From: an uncultured Thermotogae bacterium
GTDB lineage: Bacteria; Bipolaricaulota; Bipolaricaulia; RBG-16-55-9; DRXL01
Length of the DNA stretch: 64,000 nt
Reading direction: 5' to 3'
Assembly: GCA_964473325.1 (NCBI GenBank)
Contig: CAYYOG010000003.1
Span: 10,478-74,477, forward strand
Shown here: piece by piece, positions 14,622-44,281 of the stretch
Numbering within the stretch: position 1 is the first letter of the stretch
How the letters are laid out: every line of letters begins with the position of its first letter
Made by a program: the position numbers and the translations under genes
Notes under the pieces: generated by a model
Told to the model about the DNA's origin: nothing
The model's input: only the letters and a program-made list of their open reading frames with translations
Databases searched by the model: none

Positions 14622-14748
14622 AGGAATCCTCCATGAGAGCAAACGCATAAAGTTCTAGGAAAGAAAGAGTTCTCACCGGGTCGAATCCACAGACCGCCAT
14701 CGGTCCGACAAGTATAGCAAAAACCCCCTCGTCGTGCAAATGGCGCTT

Positions 14749-23460: not shown

Positions 23461-24327
23461 ATGCTGGCGACGTTCTCGATTGTTGCGTGCGATCTCAAAG
23501 CACGAGAGTGGGGCGTGGCGGTGCAATCGAAGTTTTTAGCTGTAGGACCTATAGTGCCCTGGGCAGAAGCGAACGTCGGCGCGATTGCGACGCAAGCGTA
23601 CGCGAACACAAGCTATGGCCCGCGAGGCCTCGCGATGCTTAGGCTGGGTTTTTCTGCTGAGGAGACATTGAAAAAGCTCTTAGAGACTGACGCAGAGCGC
23701 GAGCACCGCCAAGTGGGCATCGTCGACGTTCAAGGGCGTGCTACTGCGTTCACGGGAAAGAAGTGCTACTCCTGGGCGGGGCACATTGTGGGCAAAAATT
23801 TTGCCGTGCAGGGTAATATTTTAGTCGGTGAGAAGACGGTCGAGGCGATGGCAGAAGCATTTGAGCGAACGCGTGGTTCGCTCTGGAAGAGACTGTTAGA
23901 GGCTTTGCGGGCAGGGCAGCGCGCCGGGGGCGACCGGCGCGGCCGACAATCAGCAGCGATCGTCGTGGTGAAAGAAAAAGGCGGCTACGGGGAGTTCAAT
24001 GACCGACTCATTGACTTGAGAGTAGATGATCATCCCAACCCCATCGAAGAGCTGGCACGGCTTTTGGATCTGCGCGAGCTGTACTTCGGCCAGACAAAGA
24101 AGCGCGTGAAGCTCGACGCTCCCACGACGAAGCGCGTCCAGACGATGCTGAAAGCGTTAGGGTATTACAAGGGCGCGACCCACGGCAAGCTCGACAAGGC
24201 CACGCGCCAAGCGCTCATAGACTTCCACAATACAGAGAATCTTGAGATGCGCTTGCAGGAAGATCTGCGGTTTCTGGACGCCCAGGTTTTAAAGTTTTTA
24301 GAAGAGAGATTTCAGCAGGGAGATTAA
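23461..24327 (+). CDS. DUF1028 (Ntn-hydrolase-like) protein with a C-terminal peptidoglycan-binding-like domain
   Basis: N-terminal MLATFSIVACD…GVAVQSKF matches the DUF1028 pattern. C-terminal TKRVQTMLKALGYYKG…KLDKATRQALIDF resembles PG_binding_1. Confidence 0.55.
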   Translation: MLATFSIVACDLKAREWGVAVQSKFLAVGPIVPWAEANVGAIATQAYANTSYGPRGLAMLRLGFSAEETLKKLLETDAEREHRQVGIVDVQGRATAFTGKKCYSWAGHIVGKNFAVQGNILVGEKTVEAMAEAFERTRGSLWKRLLEALRAGQRAGGDRRGRQSAAIVVVKEKGGYGEFNDRLIDLRVDDHPNPIEELARLLDLRELYFGQTKKRVKLDAPTTKRVQTMLKALGYYKGATHGKLDKATRQALIDFHNTENLEMRLQEDLRFLDAQVLKFLEERFQQGD

Positions 24328-24371
24328 CTGCGCTTACCCGGTAAAGAGTTTCCCTCTTCCAGTCTGAAAAC

Positions 24372-24400
24372 TTGACAAACTCGCCCCCTGGTGCTATAAT
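24372..24400 (+). promoter_or_regulatory. Consensus sigma70-type promoter (TTGACA-17-TATAAT) for hsp20
   Basis: TTGACA at 24372-24377, TATAAT at 24395-24400, exact 17-nt spacer. Confidence 0.7.
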
Positions 24401-24404
24401 CGGA

Positions 24405-24431
24405 TTAGCAGACTAGAGCTGAGTCTGCTAA
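24405..24431 (+). promoter_or_regulatory. CIRCE-like inverted repeat (TTAGCAGAC-N9-GTCTGCTAA) overlapping the transcription start of hsp20; putative HrcA operator variant
   Basis: Perfect 9-bp inverted arms with a 9-nt spacer. Matches CIRCE TTAGCACTC-N9-GAGTGCTAA except for a symmetric CT->GA change in both arms. Confidence 0.6.
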
Positions 24432-24474
24432 TTTCGAGAAATGACAGAACAGAATAGCAAAGGAGGTAGAGATC

Positions 24475-24933
24475 ATGACCAGACTGCCAGAACTCTGGAG
24501 GGAGCCCTTTGCGCTCTCGACGCGGCTGAGCCGCTTGATGGACGAGCTCTTTGCCGACTTCGACCGCAGCTTGTTCTTCGACTGGACGCCCTTCGAAACC
24601 TTCGGGAGAACAGATATCTATGAAAAAGACGGGAAGCTCGTCTACGAGACCGAGCTGCCCGGGGTGAAGAAGGGCGATATAGAGATCAAGGTCGAGGACG
24701 GCCGGCTCGTCATCAGCGGCGAGGTCAAGCGCGATGAGCGCATCGAGCGTGAGAACTACTTCCGTATCGGGCGTCACTACGGGAAGTTTCAAAGATGCTT
24801 CCCGCTCCCTGAGCAGGCCGATGATCCCAAGAAGATCAAGGCCAGCTTCGAGGACGGCATCTTAAGAGTGACGGTCCCGCTGCGGGAGTCGCTCAAAGAG
24901 AAAGAAAAGCCCATCGAGATCAAGGTCGAGTGA
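24475..24933 (+). CDS. Hsp20/alpha-crystallin family small heat-shock protein
   Basis: Alpha-crystallin domain (…DIYEKDGKLVYETELPGVKKGDIEIKVEDGRLVISGE…GKFQRCFPLP…). AAAGGAGG SD. Confidence 0.9.
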   Translation: MTRLPELWREPFALSTRLSRLMDELFADFDRSLFFDWTPFETFGRTDIYEKDGKLVYETELPGVKKGDIEIKVEDGRLVISGEVKRDERIERENYFRIGRHYGKFQRCFPLPEQADDPKKIKASFEDGILRVTVPLRESLKEKEKPIEIKVE

Positions 24934-24934
24934 C

Positions 24935-25008
24935 GCTTCGAGGCCCTCACCCCCGACCCCTCTCCCGTCTAGACGGGAGAGGGGTGCCCGCAGGGCCGGG
25001 GTGAGGGC
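24935..25008. terminator. Compound GC-rich hairpin; bidirectional terminator between convergent genes
   Basis: Nested inverted repeats gaggccctcacccc…ggggtgagggcct and cccctctcccgtctagacgggagagggg. Confidence 0.55.
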
Positions 25009-25009
25009 C

Positions 25010-26065
25010 TTAAAATCTCTCCCACTTGATCGGCTCAGTAAAATCAGGCAAGCCCTCTGCAGTCAACGGGACTTCTGCCCGCTCGATGGAGATGACGGGA
25101 TACCCAGACCCAAAGCGATAAATGTACGTATATGGCTTTTCGTTTTTGTAGTGCAAGAAGACCCGAGCTATCAGTTTGGCTTTTTCGAGCAAGATCGGCT
25201 TGCCCACGTTGTCACGACGCGCGATCCCCAGATCGAAAAGCTCCTTGGTGTTGAGAATATACGCCGAGAACGTCACGGCGAAGTCTTCGTATTCGTTCGT
25301 CATCGCATAGTTAGGCGGCCCGCCGAATGGCTCACGAACGTAATTAACCATATCAGAGCCGGACTGCTTATGAAGCGAGGTCCACTCGCGCTTGAGCGAC
25401 GCACCGACTTTAACAAGGTGCACAAAGTGTGCCAGCTCATGATAGAAGATCCCCGTGAAGCGTCGCCCTGGCATCATGCGATACATCTCAATAGTGCGCT
25501 CGGCGTAGAGAAAACGTCCTTCGAATTCATTCGATGGGGGCAAGAACTTGATCTTCCGGAGCCCTTCGCTCAGGCGGGTACCCAAGGAACGCAGCGCCCG
25601 CCACATTTGATCGCAATGATGATCTTCGAGCTCCCCAGCTTCTTCTTCGTAAGAGATACGAACGCTTAATTCAGCAGCGATCTCGACACAGAACGCCTTG
25701 GGGAACGTAATATCGAGTTCGACCGTGAGCGCCGTACTGTTGGTGTGGAAGAAAACAATGCGCCAAGGTCGATTGAGGCTTGCGGCGTCGGCCTCAGCGA
25801 GCAGATCAAACGAGCTGTGATCGAGCGTGAGCGCGACGGGCTGATTGAGATCGGGCTTATAAAGCTGCGCTGAGGCCCACAGCTCTAATGGCCTGACTTC
25901 AAAGTGCGCGCGGACAGGGCCGGGTGCTGTGGGCACGAACGTGACTTCATAGAGTTCCCCCGGCGCGACTGTCGCTTTATACGCACCCGTCACGGTTGCG
26001 TGCGCCGCGACGGCGAGCATTATGAGTAGAAGAGTAATCAGAGTAAAAAGCTTTGCGCGCATCAT
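25010..26065 (-). CDS. Secreted hypothetical protein with an HExxH motif (DUF4157-like putative metalloprotease)
   Basis: Signal peptide MMRAKLFTLITLLLIMLAVAAHA; FYHELAHFVHL motif. Start placed at ATG 26065 (AAGGA SD); the track start is GTG 26071. Confidence 0.5.
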   Translation of the reverse strand: MMRAKLFTLITLLLIMLAVAAHATVTGAYKATVAPGELYEVTFVPTAPGPVRAHFEVRPLELWASAQLYKPDLNQPVALTLDHSSFDLLAEADAASLNRPWRIVFFHTNSTALTVELDITFPKAFCVEIAAELSVRISYEEEAGELEDHHCDQMWRALRSLGTRLSEGLRKIKFLPPSNEFEGRFLYAERTIEMYRMMPGRRFTGIFYHELAHFVHLVKVGASLKREWTSLHKQSGSDMVNYVREPFGGPPNYAMTNEYEDFAVTFSAYILNTKELFDLGIARRDNVGKPILLEKAKLIARVFLHYKNEKPYTYIYRFGSGYPVISIERAEVPLTAEGLPDFTEPIKWERF

Positions 26066-26218
26066 GAACACCGTCCTTGAGAAAAGCTTTCGAGGGGATA
26101 TTATAGCACACAGAGTCAGGGAACTGACAGCTCACCAAGAGAGGGCGGGGGAAAGCTCCCTAGACGGTTGGGAGCCAGATTTCTAGGGGACCTTCCCCCT
26201 GACTACCGACCGGAGGGC

Positions 26219-26479: not shown

Positions 26480-26688
26480 AATCTCTAGCCTCCTCATGCT
26501 TCATGATCGGGGAAATAAAAAAGAGAGATTGATGAGAGCTCGCTGCGAGATTCTGCAGAACCTGACGGCTTGAGCGTATTGGGTCACTCATAAAAGGTGC
26601 GCATCTGCGCACTTGCACAACTATAGTGTATATATTATAATACTAAACGCGGCCTTTGTCAAGAGATGGGGATCACAAGGAGCCACAG

Positions 26689-27000
26689 ATGATCTACACG
26701 CAGTATATTTATCTCTTTAAGTGCTTGTCGCACCGGTCGCGGTTGCGGCTGATGGAACTGCTAGCTGCGCATGGCGAAATGACCGTCTCGGAGATCGCTG
26801 CAGCATTTCAGGGCGAAGACATCGAAGATCGCGATCCCAGCACGATCTCGCGCAATCTCACTATTCTACGGCAACAGGGCTTTGTGACCCCGCGCCGCGT
26901 GGGCCAGATGAAATACTACTCGCTCAACATCGCCAAGATCGAAGAAGCGTTTGCGGACTTCCTCAAATTCTTGCGCACGGCTAAAACCCGCCTGAAGTAG
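26689..27000 (+). CDS. ArsR/SmtB-family transcriptional regulator
   Basis: HTH region LFKCLSHRSRLRLMELLAAHGEMTVSEIAAAF…STISRNLTILRQQGFV. AAGGAG SD before ATG 26689; a 7-bp-arm palindrome GTGCGCA-tc-TGCGCAC lies upstream at 26597-26612. Confidence 0.75.
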   Translation: MIYTQYIYLFKCLSHRSRLRLMELLAAHGEMTVSEIAAAFQGEDIEDRDPSTISRNLTILRQQGFVTPRRVGQMKYYSLNIAKIEEAFADFLKFLRTAKTRLK

Positions 27001-27084
27001 CCCCCTATTTGACTGCCGGGGAGCCTCTCCCGTATGATACGTCTACGAAAGCTCCAACGTTGGGAAAGGGGGAAACGGGAACGT

Positions 27085-27852
27085 ATGCGGTGCGTCGCGA
27101 TCACCAACCAGAAGGGTGGCTCCGGTAAGACCACAACAGCTGTCAACTTGGCTGCAGCGTTAGGCGAGAAGAAACGTCGCGTCTTGGTCATCGATCTTGA
27201 TCCGCAGTGCTCAGCTACATCATGGTTTGGTCTCAAAAATGCTGATAAGGGCATCTTTCGCGTCTTTGTCGAAAACGGGAGCGTTGTAGATATTGTCAGT
27301 AAGACAAACGTTCCCAATGTCGAGATCGTCCCGGCCAGCCCGTGGCTAATAGGGGCTGAGAAAGCCCTCGCTGGAGAGGTCGGCGCGGAGACGATCTTGC
27401 GACGCCAAGTCCATAATCTCCCCAAAGATCGCTGGGACTATCTCTTGATAGACTGCCCGCCGGCGCTGGGGATTTTGACCGTGAATGCGCTAGCAGCTGT
27501 CAGCGAAGTGCTCGTCCCGGTTGAAGCCCACGTGCTGGCACTGGAAGGCTTGGCTCAGCTTCTGCAGACCGTTGATGTCGTTAGAGAGCGGCTCAACCCA
27601 GATCTCGAGATCTGTGGGATCTTGGCGTGCCGCGTGGACGGGCGCACGCGCCATGCCCAAGAAGTCGTCGAACAGCTCCAGAGCCGTTTCGGGAACCTTG
27701 TCTATAAGACAGTTATTCGCGAGAACGTCCGTCTGGCGGAGTGCCCTTCTTTTGGGAAGCCCATTATGCACTACGATCCGCGCAGCTATGGCGCACAGGA
27801 CTATCGCGCGCTCGCGTTAGAGATCATCCGTCAAGAACGAGGGAGGGAGTAG
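27085..27852 (+). CDS. parA: ParA/Soj-family P-loop ATPase
   Basis: Deviant Walker A ITNQKGGSGKTTTAVNLAAAL; DLDPQ motif; typical ParA length. Confidence 0.85.
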   Translation: MRCVAITNQKGGSGKTTTAVNLAAALGEKKRRVLVIDLDPQCSATSWFGLKNADKGIFRVFVENGSVVDIVSKTNVPNVEIVPASPWLIGAEKALAGEVGAETILRRQVHNLPKDRWDYLLIDCPPALGILTVNALAAVSEVLVPVEAHVLALEGLAQLLQTVDVVRERLNPDLEICGILACRVDGRTRHAQEVVEQLQSRFGNLVYKTVIRENVRLAECPSFGKPIMHYDPRSYGAQDYRALALEIIRQERGRE

Positions 27853-32942: not shown

Positions 32943-33887
32943 CTAATTTGTGCTGAGCGTCCCAACGATTGTCGGGATGTTATTGATGAGTTTTGGTGTT
33001 GCTTGTAGGCACGCTAATTTCTGTCCGGCAGTCACAAAGAGCACGAACGGCAGTTCTAGAGTCACGGGGATCTGCTGGCTTCCCGGCCCAATGATGATCC
33101 CGATTCGACGATAGACGGCAGTCGTGTACGAGAACTGTAATGACTGGGCGAATGACTGCACAGTTAAGAACGCCGGTGGCGCGACGCCGATCTCAAAGAG
33201 TTTTGCAGTGTCAGAGACCGTTGCGATGACCGCAGGCGCATTCATTGGTGCGTTGACTTCGCTCTTGTTAGGCAGGTCTTGTGGGCAGGTCGGTGCGGGG
33301 CCTTGCGGAATTTGGGGAGCCGGCGGCGCCGGGGGCGTTGGTGTCGGCACGGTGATCAGCGAAAAGAGAATCTGAAAGATCCCTACGGGACCCAAAAAGG
33401 GCGCGACAGGGAAGATCGGAAAGAGCGGGGTCGTCCCGCTTACGGGGAGGATCACAAACGCTGCAATCGTGCCCGTCGGGATATCGAGAAGCGCTGCAAC
33501 GAACGGATTAGCAATGACGACGATCCCGTATTTCCCTGAAAAGTCCCGTCCGGAGAGCTTTGCGCCCTGTGGGATGTCAATCGTCCCGTAGACGATATAC
33601 GGGACTTGGCCAGCGACTAGAGCTACGAGCGCAAATGCTTCAGTGAACAGAGTCCCGGTGATGCCGGTACTGCTGCGCACTTGCCCGAACGGTTGGCGCT
33701 TCTGAAACTCGTCGGCCCACGCGGAGCCACTCACTTGAGTCTTCTCTTGGAAGGCACTTTGGAGTTCAGAAAATTTCGCGTCGTCTGGGAAGACGACTTG
33801 GGCTGGGGCTTGCTGCTGGGCAAGGAGCACAAGCGGGCCAAACACAATCACTATTAAAAGGCTGAGAATCGCGATGCGCGTGCGCAT
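32943..33887 (-). CDS. Secreted hypothetical protein (Pro/Ala-rich central linker)
   Basis: Signal peptide MRTRIAILSLLIVIVFGPLVLLAQQ; PTPTPPAPPAPQIPQGPAP linker. Start trimmed to the ATG at 33887. Confidence 0.4.
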   Translation of the reverse strand: MRTRIAILSLLIVIVFGPLVLLAQQQAPAQVVFPDDAKFSELQSAFQEKTQVSGSAWADEFQKRQPFGQVRSSTGITGTLFTEAFALVALVAGQVPYIVYGTIDIPQGAKLSGRDFSGKYGIVVIANPFVAALLDIPTGTIAAFVILPVSGTTPLFPIFPVAPFLGPVGIFQILFSLITVPTPTPPAPPAPQIPQGPAPTCPQDLPNKSEVNAPMNAPAVIATVSDTAKLFEIGVAPPAFLTVQSFAQSLQFSYTTAVYRRIGIIIGPGSQQIPVTLELPFVLFVTAGQKLACLQATPKLINNIPTIVGTLSTN

Positions 33888-34040
33888 GGTTTCAACCCCT
33901 TTCGTGTTACCCATTGTACCCCAGAGAGAGGAGGAAGGCTAGACTACCAGTCTTGGGTGCCCAAGTTCTCGAACCGAGCGCACGACAGAAGAAACGCTCT
34001 TTGATCTCGCGCTTGCCATAACGCTCCCACAGGGCCCGCG

Positions 34041-43081: not shown

Positions 43082-44281
43082 GTGGATAAGGGGTCGGTTG
43101 ATGTGCAAGACCTATATGTCGGGACGGTGCTGGCGGGCTTGATCTTTCTCTCTAGTATTCTCTCTGTCGAGTTAGGGCTTTCGGCCGCGATCATCGAGAT
43201 CGCGTTCGGCGTGCTCGCTGGGAACTTCTTGGGCGTCACGGCTCTCCCCTGGGTCGCTTATATGGCGAGCCTGGGCGGGATTCTCTTGACGTTTCTGGCA
43301 GGAGCTGAAGTCGATCTCGACGTGATGCGGGCCAAGTTCAAAGAGAGTCTTCTTATTGGGGGCATCTCGTTCTTGGCACCCTTCCTCGGCACGATGCTCA
43401 TCTGTCACTATCTGTTGGGCTGGGAGTGGAAGGCCGCGCAGATCGCCGGCGTCGCTCTCTCGACCACATCGCTTGCTGTCGTCTACGCCGTGCTCGTCGA
43501 GACCGGACTGACCCACACCTCTGTAGGAAAACTGATCATGGCCGCGACCTTTGTGACCGACTTTGGCACCGCAGCAGCCTTAGCACTCGTGCTCTTAGAG
43601 TTCAATCTTAATACGCTCTGGTTCGTGCTGATCTCTCTTATAACTATTCTGCTTGCGCCCCGGATCGCGCCACGGCTCTTTGCTCGCTATGGGGATCGGG
43701 TCATCGAGCCGGAGATAAAATTTCTCTTTTTGCTCTTAGTGATTTTGATGTACTTTGCCAAGCTGGGGCTGAGCCACGCGATCCTGCCCGCGTTCATGCT
43801 GGGGCTGGTGATGTCGCGGCTCTTCCAAAAGAACATCCGGCTCCAGCGCAAGCTGCGCGTCGTGGGCTTTGCGTTCATCACGCCGATCTTCTTCCTAAGC
43901 GGGGGCACGAAGATCTCGCTGTCGCTCTTATGGTCCAGCGCGGCGCTCTTTCTCATTCTGTTCGCGGTGAAGCAGATCGCTAAGATCGTCGGGGTGTACC
44001 CTCTGGCGCGGCACTATCTGCCCAAAGAAGCGATGTACACGACGCTGCTGATGAGCACCGGGCTGACGATGGGGACGCTCTCGTCCGTGGCGGGGCTGGA
44101 GGCAAGTTTGATTGATCAATTGCAATTCTCGGTTCTCGTTGCGGTCGTAGTGGCCAGCGCCATCGTGCCGACGTTCATCGCCCAGAGATTCTTCCATCCC
44201 CATCACGCGTTAGTAGAACTTCATCATAAAGAAGAAGAGTCTTCCCAGCCGGCGCTGGTCGAAGAGACGGCTCAACAGTAA
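43082..44281 (+). CDS. Cation:proton antiporter (Na+/H+ exchanger family)
   Basis: ~11 TM helices with CPA-family pattern (…LGGILLTFLAGAEVDL…). GTG start. Confidence 0.8.
   Translation: MDKGSVDVQDLYVGTVLAGLIFLSSILSVELGLSAAIIEIAFGVLAGNFLGVTALPWVAYMASLGGILLTFLAGAEVDLDVMRAKFKESLLIGGISFLAPFLGTMLICHYLLGWEWKAAQIAGVALSTTSLAVVYAVLVETGLTHTSVGKLIMAATFVTDFGTAAALALVLLEFNLNTLWFVLISLITILLAPRIAPRLFARYGDRVIEPEIKFLFLLLVILMYFAKLGLSHAILPAFMLGLVMSRLFQKNIRLQRKLRVVGFAFITPIFFLSGGTKISLSLLWSSAALFLILFAVKQIAKIVGVYPLARHYLPKEAMYTTLLMSTGLTMGTLSSVAGLEASLIDQLQFSVLVAVVVASAIVPTFIAQRFFHPHHALVELHHKEEESSQPALVEETAQQ

Follow-up and report, generated by a model that had tools for sequence, protein, structure and literature searches.

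A G-A variant of the CIRCE repeat as the probable HrcA operator of hsp20 in an uncultured Bipolaricaulota lineage

The hsp20 gene in the 64-kb stretch of DNA analysed here (hereafter, the window) is preceded by an inverted repeat that is very probably a CIRCE-type operator of the repressor HrcA, spelled with G-A at half-site positions 7-8, and that would keep the gene off at normal temperature. Judged from its sequence and from its relatives, hsp20 most likely joins the hrcA-dnaK operon in the predicted HrcA regulon of Bipolaricaulota. The features of the locus are as follows.

24363-24371, forward strand: A-rich block TCTGAAAAC, abutting the -35 hexamer; invariant in 13 of 13 aligned clade promoters
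24372-24377, forward strand: -35 hexamer TTGACA; invariant in the clade alignment and present in every hsp20 orthologue found by protein search
24392-24400, forward strand: extended -10 element TGcTATAAT, separated from the -35 by a 17-nt spacer; hexamer kept, spacer sequence variable
24405-24431, forward strand: CIRCE-type inverted repeat TTAGCAGAC-N9-GTCTGCTAA, the proposed HrcA operator, extending over the predicted +1 to about +25
24432-24474, forward strand: remaining 5' leader; its Shine-Dalgarno sequence AAGGAGGT (24460-24467) does not vary in the clade alignment
24475-24933, forward strand: hsp20 open reading frame, 152 aa, an alpha-crystallin-type small heat-shock protein (Pfam HSP20 and ArsA_HSP20)
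24941-25010, no strand assigned: nested GC-rich inverted repeats between hsp20 and a convergent gene (25010-26071, reverse strand)

The first-pass annotation had described a perfect TTGACA-17-TATAAT promoter before the repeat, and this was confirmed by a consensus scan, in which the hsp20 promoter scored 12 of 12, with TG (24392-24393) before the second hexamer (24395-24400), and was the sole promoter-like site within 23900-25300. The left arm of the repeat, TTAGCAGAC (24405-24413), and the right arm, GTCTGCTAA (24423-24431), enclose the 9-nt spacer TAGAGCTGA (24414-24422), which gives the 9+9+9 layout of CIRCE, and perfect complementarity reaches out to 11-nt arms (24404-24414 / 24422-24432). 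Compared with the CIRCE consensus, quoted as TTAGCACTC-N9-GAGTGCTAA (PMC3806222, PMC3842655), 14 of the 18 arm positions agree and the mismatches fall at positions 7-8 of both arms, which read G-A here versus C-T in canonical CIRCE; the earlier description of a CIRCE-identical architecture carrying a symmetric two-base change in each arm thus holds. The repeat begins 4 nt past the -10 hexamer, so that it spans the predicted transcription start, a placement deduced from geometry, and it ends 43 nt before the hsp20 ATG; like CIRCE, it has a vegetative promoter on one side and a heat-shock gene's start codon on the other. Canonical CIRCE was not found in the 64-kb window by canonical or relaxed searches, and the other relaxed matches there are an intragenic one with three mismatches at 43580, in coding sequence, and one at chance level at 14714.

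It is scarcely credible that the repeat has no regulatory role and is just a palindrome arisen by chance, or the terminator of the DUF1028 gene upstream. It does lie 78 nt past the stop codon of that gene (ORF 23461-24327), but it was found only once in the window, where shuffled sequences give 0.04 matches even when up to three mismatches are allowed, no T-run follows it, the terminator scan made no call, and it is positioned after the promoter and not before it. It is also conserved where the upstream gene differs, and conservation already contradicts this reading.

The link between the repeat and HrcA itself was drawn from a related metagenome-assembled genome (MAG), whose neighbour proteins are about 88% identical to those of the window, and not from the window's own genome; hrcA, groES, groEL, dnaK, grpE, dnaJ and hspR were not detected within the 64 kb by Pfam or by tblastn, the latter with reference queries, of which the one for HrcA matched PDB 1STZ. 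One of the hsp20 contigs from other lineages (L063) ends in dnaK, and a search with that DnaK revealed the hrcA operons of Bipolaricaulota, which have the gene order hrcA-grpE-dnaK-dnaJ (Pfam HrcA); a further search with one Bipolaricaulota HrcA yielded more lineages. The gene is present in the window-clade MAG GCA_025060395.1 (L194 10001-11026, JANXCC010000012.1; Pfam HrcA, 2.1e-46) and in five other Bipolaricaulota lineages. On another contig (L029, JANXCC010000001.1) the same MAG carries an hsp20 with the exact GAC repeat, whose product is 91% identical to that of the window.

The earlier reading had predicted the same element at the dnaK operon, and it is indeed found there: the clade MAG carries a promoter-proximal TTAGCAGAC-N9-GATTGCTAA at its hrcA-grpE-dnaK-dnaJ operon, where the sequence upstream of hrcA runs TTGACA-17-TATCAT-tac-TTAGCAGAC-tcgcaaggt-GATTGCTAA and the ATG overlaps the final base. 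Six independent hrcA operators combine a left arm with GTC, GAC, ATC or AAC and a right arm with canonical GAG or GAT:

hrcA operator of L069 and L200: TTAGCAGTC-N9-GAGTGCTAA
hrcA operator of L070/L072 and L194: TTAGCAGAC-N9-GATTGCTAA
hrcA operator of L196: TTAGCAATC-N9-GAGTGCTAA
hrcA operator of L199 (complete genome CP070725.1): TTAGCAAAC-N9-GAGTGCTAA

On the single contig JBBIMR010000011.1 (L063/L069) the hrcA operator TTAGCAGTC-N9-GAGTGCTAA and the hsp20 operator TTAGCAGTC-N9-GACTGCTAA stand 12 kb apart. Among 12 operators of the phylum, from hsp20 and hrcA, both arms keep positions 1-6 and 9 without exception and differ only at positions 7-8, so that the element fits a relaxed consensus, TTAGCA-NN-C, and not textbook CIRCE.

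Single operators combine G7, A7 and canonical arms, so that half-site positions 7-8 look degenerate or weakly specified rather than re-specified. An altered recognition region in HrcA was considered and rejected, since the stretch SSATIRNEM is identical between L070 and B. subtilis, and L069 has SSATVRNDM, with two conservative substitutions. The same two observations, hybrid operators and a recognition stretch that is unchanged or conservatively substituted, tell against the distinct HrcA-like regulator that the first-pass annotation had offered as one explanation. A PDB sequence search with HrcA returned only the T. maritima protein, entry 1STZ, and we know of no solved HrcA-DNA complex.

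Conservation of the hsp20 promoter was followed at two depths. A genome scan for the exact 18 specified arm bases, with one genome per GTDB species, gave 55 loci, and the clade alignment of 13 promoters was assembled from the 10 orthologous hsp20 loci of that scan, the window and two metagenome copies. Its conserved footprint comprises TCTGAAAAC-TTGACAAA, TGnTATAAT, the repeat arms and AAGGAGGT, whereas the spacer between -35 and -10, the linker (4 nt) and the loop (9 nt) are variable and nothing is alignable upstream of about -45. The arms of the ten genome-scan loci were preset by the search pattern, and their invariance is therefore no independent evidence; the unbiased loci are only L001-L004 and L060-L068.

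Motif-blind orthologues were obtained from a protein search, in which Hsp20 homologues at 84, 71, 69 and 68% identity were found and their contigs inspected. All four lineages (L060, L063, L066 and L064) have TTGACA-17-TATAAT, then 4-5 nt, then TTAGCAGTC-N9-GACTGCTAA, with the operator about 35-40 nt 5' of the hsp20 start codon. Position 8 is changed from A to T in these orthologues, with the matching swap in the opposite arm. As the four lineages share this layout, the element and its position are conserved across the phylum.

Several further observations concern these loci. The TCTGAAAAC block (24363-24371) is invariant throughout the clade, in contrast to the unrelated and unalignable DNA farther upstream; it also occurs in L060 and is absent from more distant orthologues, and from its sequence it is possibly an UP-element-like part of the promoter or a second protein site. 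In one Acetothermia lineage (L064 10001-11406, and the same region of L065) a full-length sigma-70-family gene, spanning regions 1.2-4, follows 20-50 nt after hsp20, apparently within its CIRCE-controlled unit, and a similar 295-aa sigma gene in a Bipolaricaulota MAG from Great Salt Lake (L006 5516-6539) has an exact GAC repeat to itself, immediately behind a promoter. If HrcA controls a sigma factor, the heat-shock response could thereby be widened. The contig L051 (CAZODX010000081.1) is labelled 'uncultured Thermotogae', but shares 85-98% identity with the Bipolaricaulota clade in its hsp20, promoter, ArsR and ParA genes; this taxonomic label is probably wrong.

The same variant is found well outside the phylum. 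In the genome scan the exact GAC repeat stands upstream of groES-groEL in 18 Dehalococcoidia/SAR202 genomes, 3-4 nt after ttgaca-17-ctatatt, and it is likewise found ahead of dnaJ in one Chlamydiae MAG and of Zn-ribbon genes in three Chloroflexi. A metagenome scan with the pattern TTAGCAGWC-N9-GWCTGCTAA gave at least 120 contigs, whose ORFs were classified by BLAST comparison with a small set of references and, for representatives only, confirmed by Pfam. Among the matches listed, a heat-shock-type gene adjoins the site in 101 of 120 contigs and none does so in 19; the adjoining ORF encodes GroES (36), HrcA (30), Hsp20 (10), ClpB/Clp (9), a Zn_ribbon_8 Ruc-like protein (6), an RpoH-like sigma factor (5), GroEL (2), DnaK (1), Lon (1) or HtpG (1). 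An A8 arm is paired with a T8 arm in 11 sites among these listed matches, nine of them at heat-shock genes. In some promoters or contigs a symmetric G7 site is accompanied by a second site, one of whose arms is canonical or nearly so: at groES in L117, at hrcA in L175, and in L164. The variant being this widespread, including before 30 hrcA genes among the metagenome matches listed, the lineage-specific HrcA specificity suggested in the first-pass annotation was not upheld. The proposal of a CIRCE-type HrcA operator for hsp20 gains from the comparison, as the same half-site is found at hrcA in the clade and the GAC repeat at groES-groEL in Dehalococcoidia, and both sets of sequences are consistent with HrcA as the regulator.

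Not every match in the genome scan belongs to a heat-shock gene. Six of the 55 were rejected as operators as they fall inside a conserved membrane-protein coding frame, ...(V/F)SRR(I/V/T)(A/S/V)SLL..., on Patescibacteria-type contigs (L016, L020, L021, L040, L050 and L054); the protein is probably ComEC-like by its sequence, and several of these contigs are labelled Gammaproteobacteria/Pseudomonadales, which looks like mis-binning. About 15 more matches have no heat-shock neighbour, a number in keeping with the roughly 9 expected by chance in 596 Gb. The 196-aa groES ORF of L014 (3373-3963) consists of two near-identical Cpn10 units, head to tail, and is either a true tandem-fused co-chaperonin or a long-read assembly duplication. 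Tandem CIRCE-like sites are present at some groES and hrcA promoters (L117 1539-1639; L175 336-604), and these resemble the double CIRCE that has reportedly been seen upstream of L. plantarum hrcA. Zn_ribbon_8 (FmdB/Ruc-like) genes recur beside the G7 variant at nine loci, three in Chloroflexi MAGs and six on metagenome contigs (L008 1225-1590, L009, L055, L083, L074, L155, L158 and L186 among them), and two of the six metagenome genes adjoin a galU-like gene.

The breadth of these target genes bears on whether a repressor other than HrcA, such as the ArsR-family protein encoded at 26656-27000 or one of HspR or CtsR type, reads the G-A variant, which would place hsp20 in a regulon of its own. 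The perfect symmetry of the variant at hsp20, set against the hybrid hrcA operators of the phylum, could be taken in this sense, and several relatives have an ArsR-type HTH gene in synteny with hsp20. We nevertheless regard such a repressor as very improbable. The same variant precedes hrcA, groES, groEL, dnaK, clpB and ruc-like genes in many lineages, and variant and canonical-type arms share single operators and tandem sites. The ArsR gene, for its part, stands directly 5' of a ParA gene, and the operator is kept in L060, L063/L069, L064 and L066, whose gene tables have no HTH regulator beside hsp20. Searches of the window for the sites of the other candidates gave only three 3-mismatch matches to HAIR (CTTGAGT-N7-ACTCAAG), at chance level and none near hsp20, and no match to the CtsR box (RGTCAAA-NAN-RGTCAAA) at up to two mismatches; an HspR homologue was not detected in the window or the loci with one query sequence. 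HrcA remains the preferred reader of the repeat.

The surroundings of hsp20 are shared with the same relatives. Hsp20 and its neighbour proteins are 80-98% identical to those of MAG loci labelled Candidatus Bipolaricaulota, Acetothermia or 'Fraserbacteria', with Hsp20 itself at 91-98% in related genomes and the neighbours less conserved, at 80-90%; by these identities the window belongs to a Bipolaricaulota (Acetothermia) genome. The window also encodes CODH/ACS, HypF/HypD and an oligopeptide ABC transporter. Downstream, hsp20 is apparently monocistronic, and the repeats that follow it have arms at 24941-24958/24993-25010 around a perfect 15-nt palindrome (30 nt overall) at 24956-24985; to judge by their structure they are possibly a bidirectional terminator, which a simple terminator scan did not call because no T-run follows. 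Two conserved ORFs lack a Pfam match, one of 353 aa (25010-26071, reverse strand), which most relatives share in synteny with hsp20, at 70-85% identity, and one of 323 aa (32943-33914, reverse strand). The ArsR-type HTH gene begins 1.7 kb downstream of hsp20, and together with the ParA-like ATPase gene that immediately follows it (26656-27852) is kept downstream of hsp20 in several relatives; the pair looks like a partition-type module on seemingly chromosomal DNA.

The position of the repeat within the predicted transcript raises the question of whether it acts only as RNA and without a repressor protein, through a 5' hairpin that stabilises or destabilises the hsp20 mRNA or serves as a thermosensor. 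The repeat folds to a 9-bp stem with a 7-nt loop, and position 8 swaps on both arms together between hsp20 orthologues (A:T to T:A), so that the pair is kept; this symmetric A/T swap fits selection on a hairpin equally well. However, the predicted hairpin uses the repeat alone and leaves the Shine-Dalgarno sequence (24460-24467) free, the fold of the leader is no better than that of shuffled sequences (z = -0.85), and covariation is seen in just one of nine pairs, not above shuffles, which together make an RNA-only mechanism unlikely. The invariant letters, moreover, are the outer half-sites of CIRCE, which an RNA stem does not need, the element at hrcA has positions 7 and 8 unpaired, and a distance of 3-5 nt from the -10 is kept in unrelated promoters. 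Taken with the folding model, these points leave the RNA-only explanation with little to recommend it, and we consider it highly unlikely. An RNA thermometer was likewise rejected, as masking of the Shine-Dalgarno sequence or start codon in the 5' UTR is not seen in the predicted, unremarkable fold.

On the preferred reading, that of an HrcA operator, an HrcA dimer bound to the repeat would block RNA polymerase and leave hsp20 silent at normal temperature, an operator that spans the start site being the classic layout for repression by occlusion. When unfolded proteins titrate GroEL, or when HrcA is inactivated by heat, the strong hsp20 promoter would fire; GroEL titration and intrinsic thermolability are the established models of heat sensing by HrcA. 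As the repeat is transcribed, the mRNA would start with a 9-bp hairpin, which may secondarily influence its stability.

Selection may lie behind the perfect symmetry of the hsp20 site, favouring either the highest possible affinity or the 5' hairpin. A stronger proposal, that the HrcA proteins of Bipolaricaulota and SAR202 truly prefer G7 and A/T8 and that hsp20 is the highest-affinity site, bound more tightly than the hybrid hrcA-dnaK operator, seems to us rather unlikely, if worth keeping in mind. Should it be true, no class I gene would be held down more strictly or induced more steeply than hsp20, the hairpin would contribute a further layer at the RNA level, and the CTC, GTC, GAC, ATC and AAC half-sites would form a natural allelic series for the reading of DNA by HrcA.

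Comparison with known systems places the hsp20 element close to the CIRCE of dnaK and groE in Bacillus subtilis and Clostridium, with which it shares 9-bp arms and a 9-bp spacer, identical half-site positions 1-6 and 9, and a location between a sigma-70/sigma-A type promoter and a chaperone gene start codon; as in those organisms, the hrcA-grpE-dnaK-dnaJ operon of Bipolaricaulota bears its own operator. It differs from them in having G-A (G-T in relatives) and not C-T at positions 7-8, in its monocistronic hsp20 target and in its host, an uncultured deep-branching phylum in which the element is known from sequence. Small heat-shock protein genes in other bacteria are controlled by HspR/HAIR and by ROSE-type RNA thermometers, which achieve the same output, a heat-inducible small heat-shock protein, by way of an element located after the promoter and before the start codon. 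The hsp20 repeat is unlike HAIR in motif and spacing, and unlike ROSE its hairpin does not sequester the Shine-Dalgarno sequence.

Control exerted by HrcA on a small heat-shock protein gene has precedents. In L. plantarum, hsp1 has an HrcA element, and its expression rises 3.16-fold in an hrcA mutant (PMC3842655), and both hsp18.5 (hsp1) and hsp19.3 carry CIRCE-like repeats (PMC3231925). The hsp20 of the window likewise has an HrcA-type inverted repeat before a small heat-shock protein gene, but L. plantarum hsp1 is co-controlled by CtsR, for which the window has no box, and the L. plantarum element is described as CIRCE-homologous and not as the G7 variant. The HrcA regulon of M. tuberculosis (groES, groEL1, groEL2 and ruc/Rv0991c) also reaches small ATP-independent chaperones, Ruc (Rv0991c) being a direct, HrcA-repressed target (PMC7448276); the likeness is drawn from the target genes, and the small chaperone there is Ruc and not Hsp20. 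The Zn-ribbon proteins encoded beside the G7 variant match the Ruc family.

In the searchable literature the G7 spellings TTAGCAGTC and GACTGCTAA were not found with HrcA or CIRCE, the string TTAGCAGAC returned only unrelated primers, and nothing was found that links HrcA to Bipolaricaulota or Acetothermia. Because these spellings are common in sequence data, the silence of the literature marks a descriptive gap and not a new kind of element. Most likely, then, a well-known regulon gains a small heat-shock protein in hsp20, and no new regulatory system is revealed.

For annotation, the textbook CIRCE consensus appears too narrow, and positions 7-8 should be modelled as degenerate. Scans that demand TTAGCACTC would miss HrcA sites in Bipolaricaulota, in SAR202 Dehalococcoidia and in many metagenomic lineages, including those before hrcA, groES, clpB, ruc-like, rpoH-like, lon and htpG genes. 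For the organism, the analysis proposes both a regulator and a mechanism for a small heat-shock protein gene in an acetogenic phylum that is deep-branching and uncultured.
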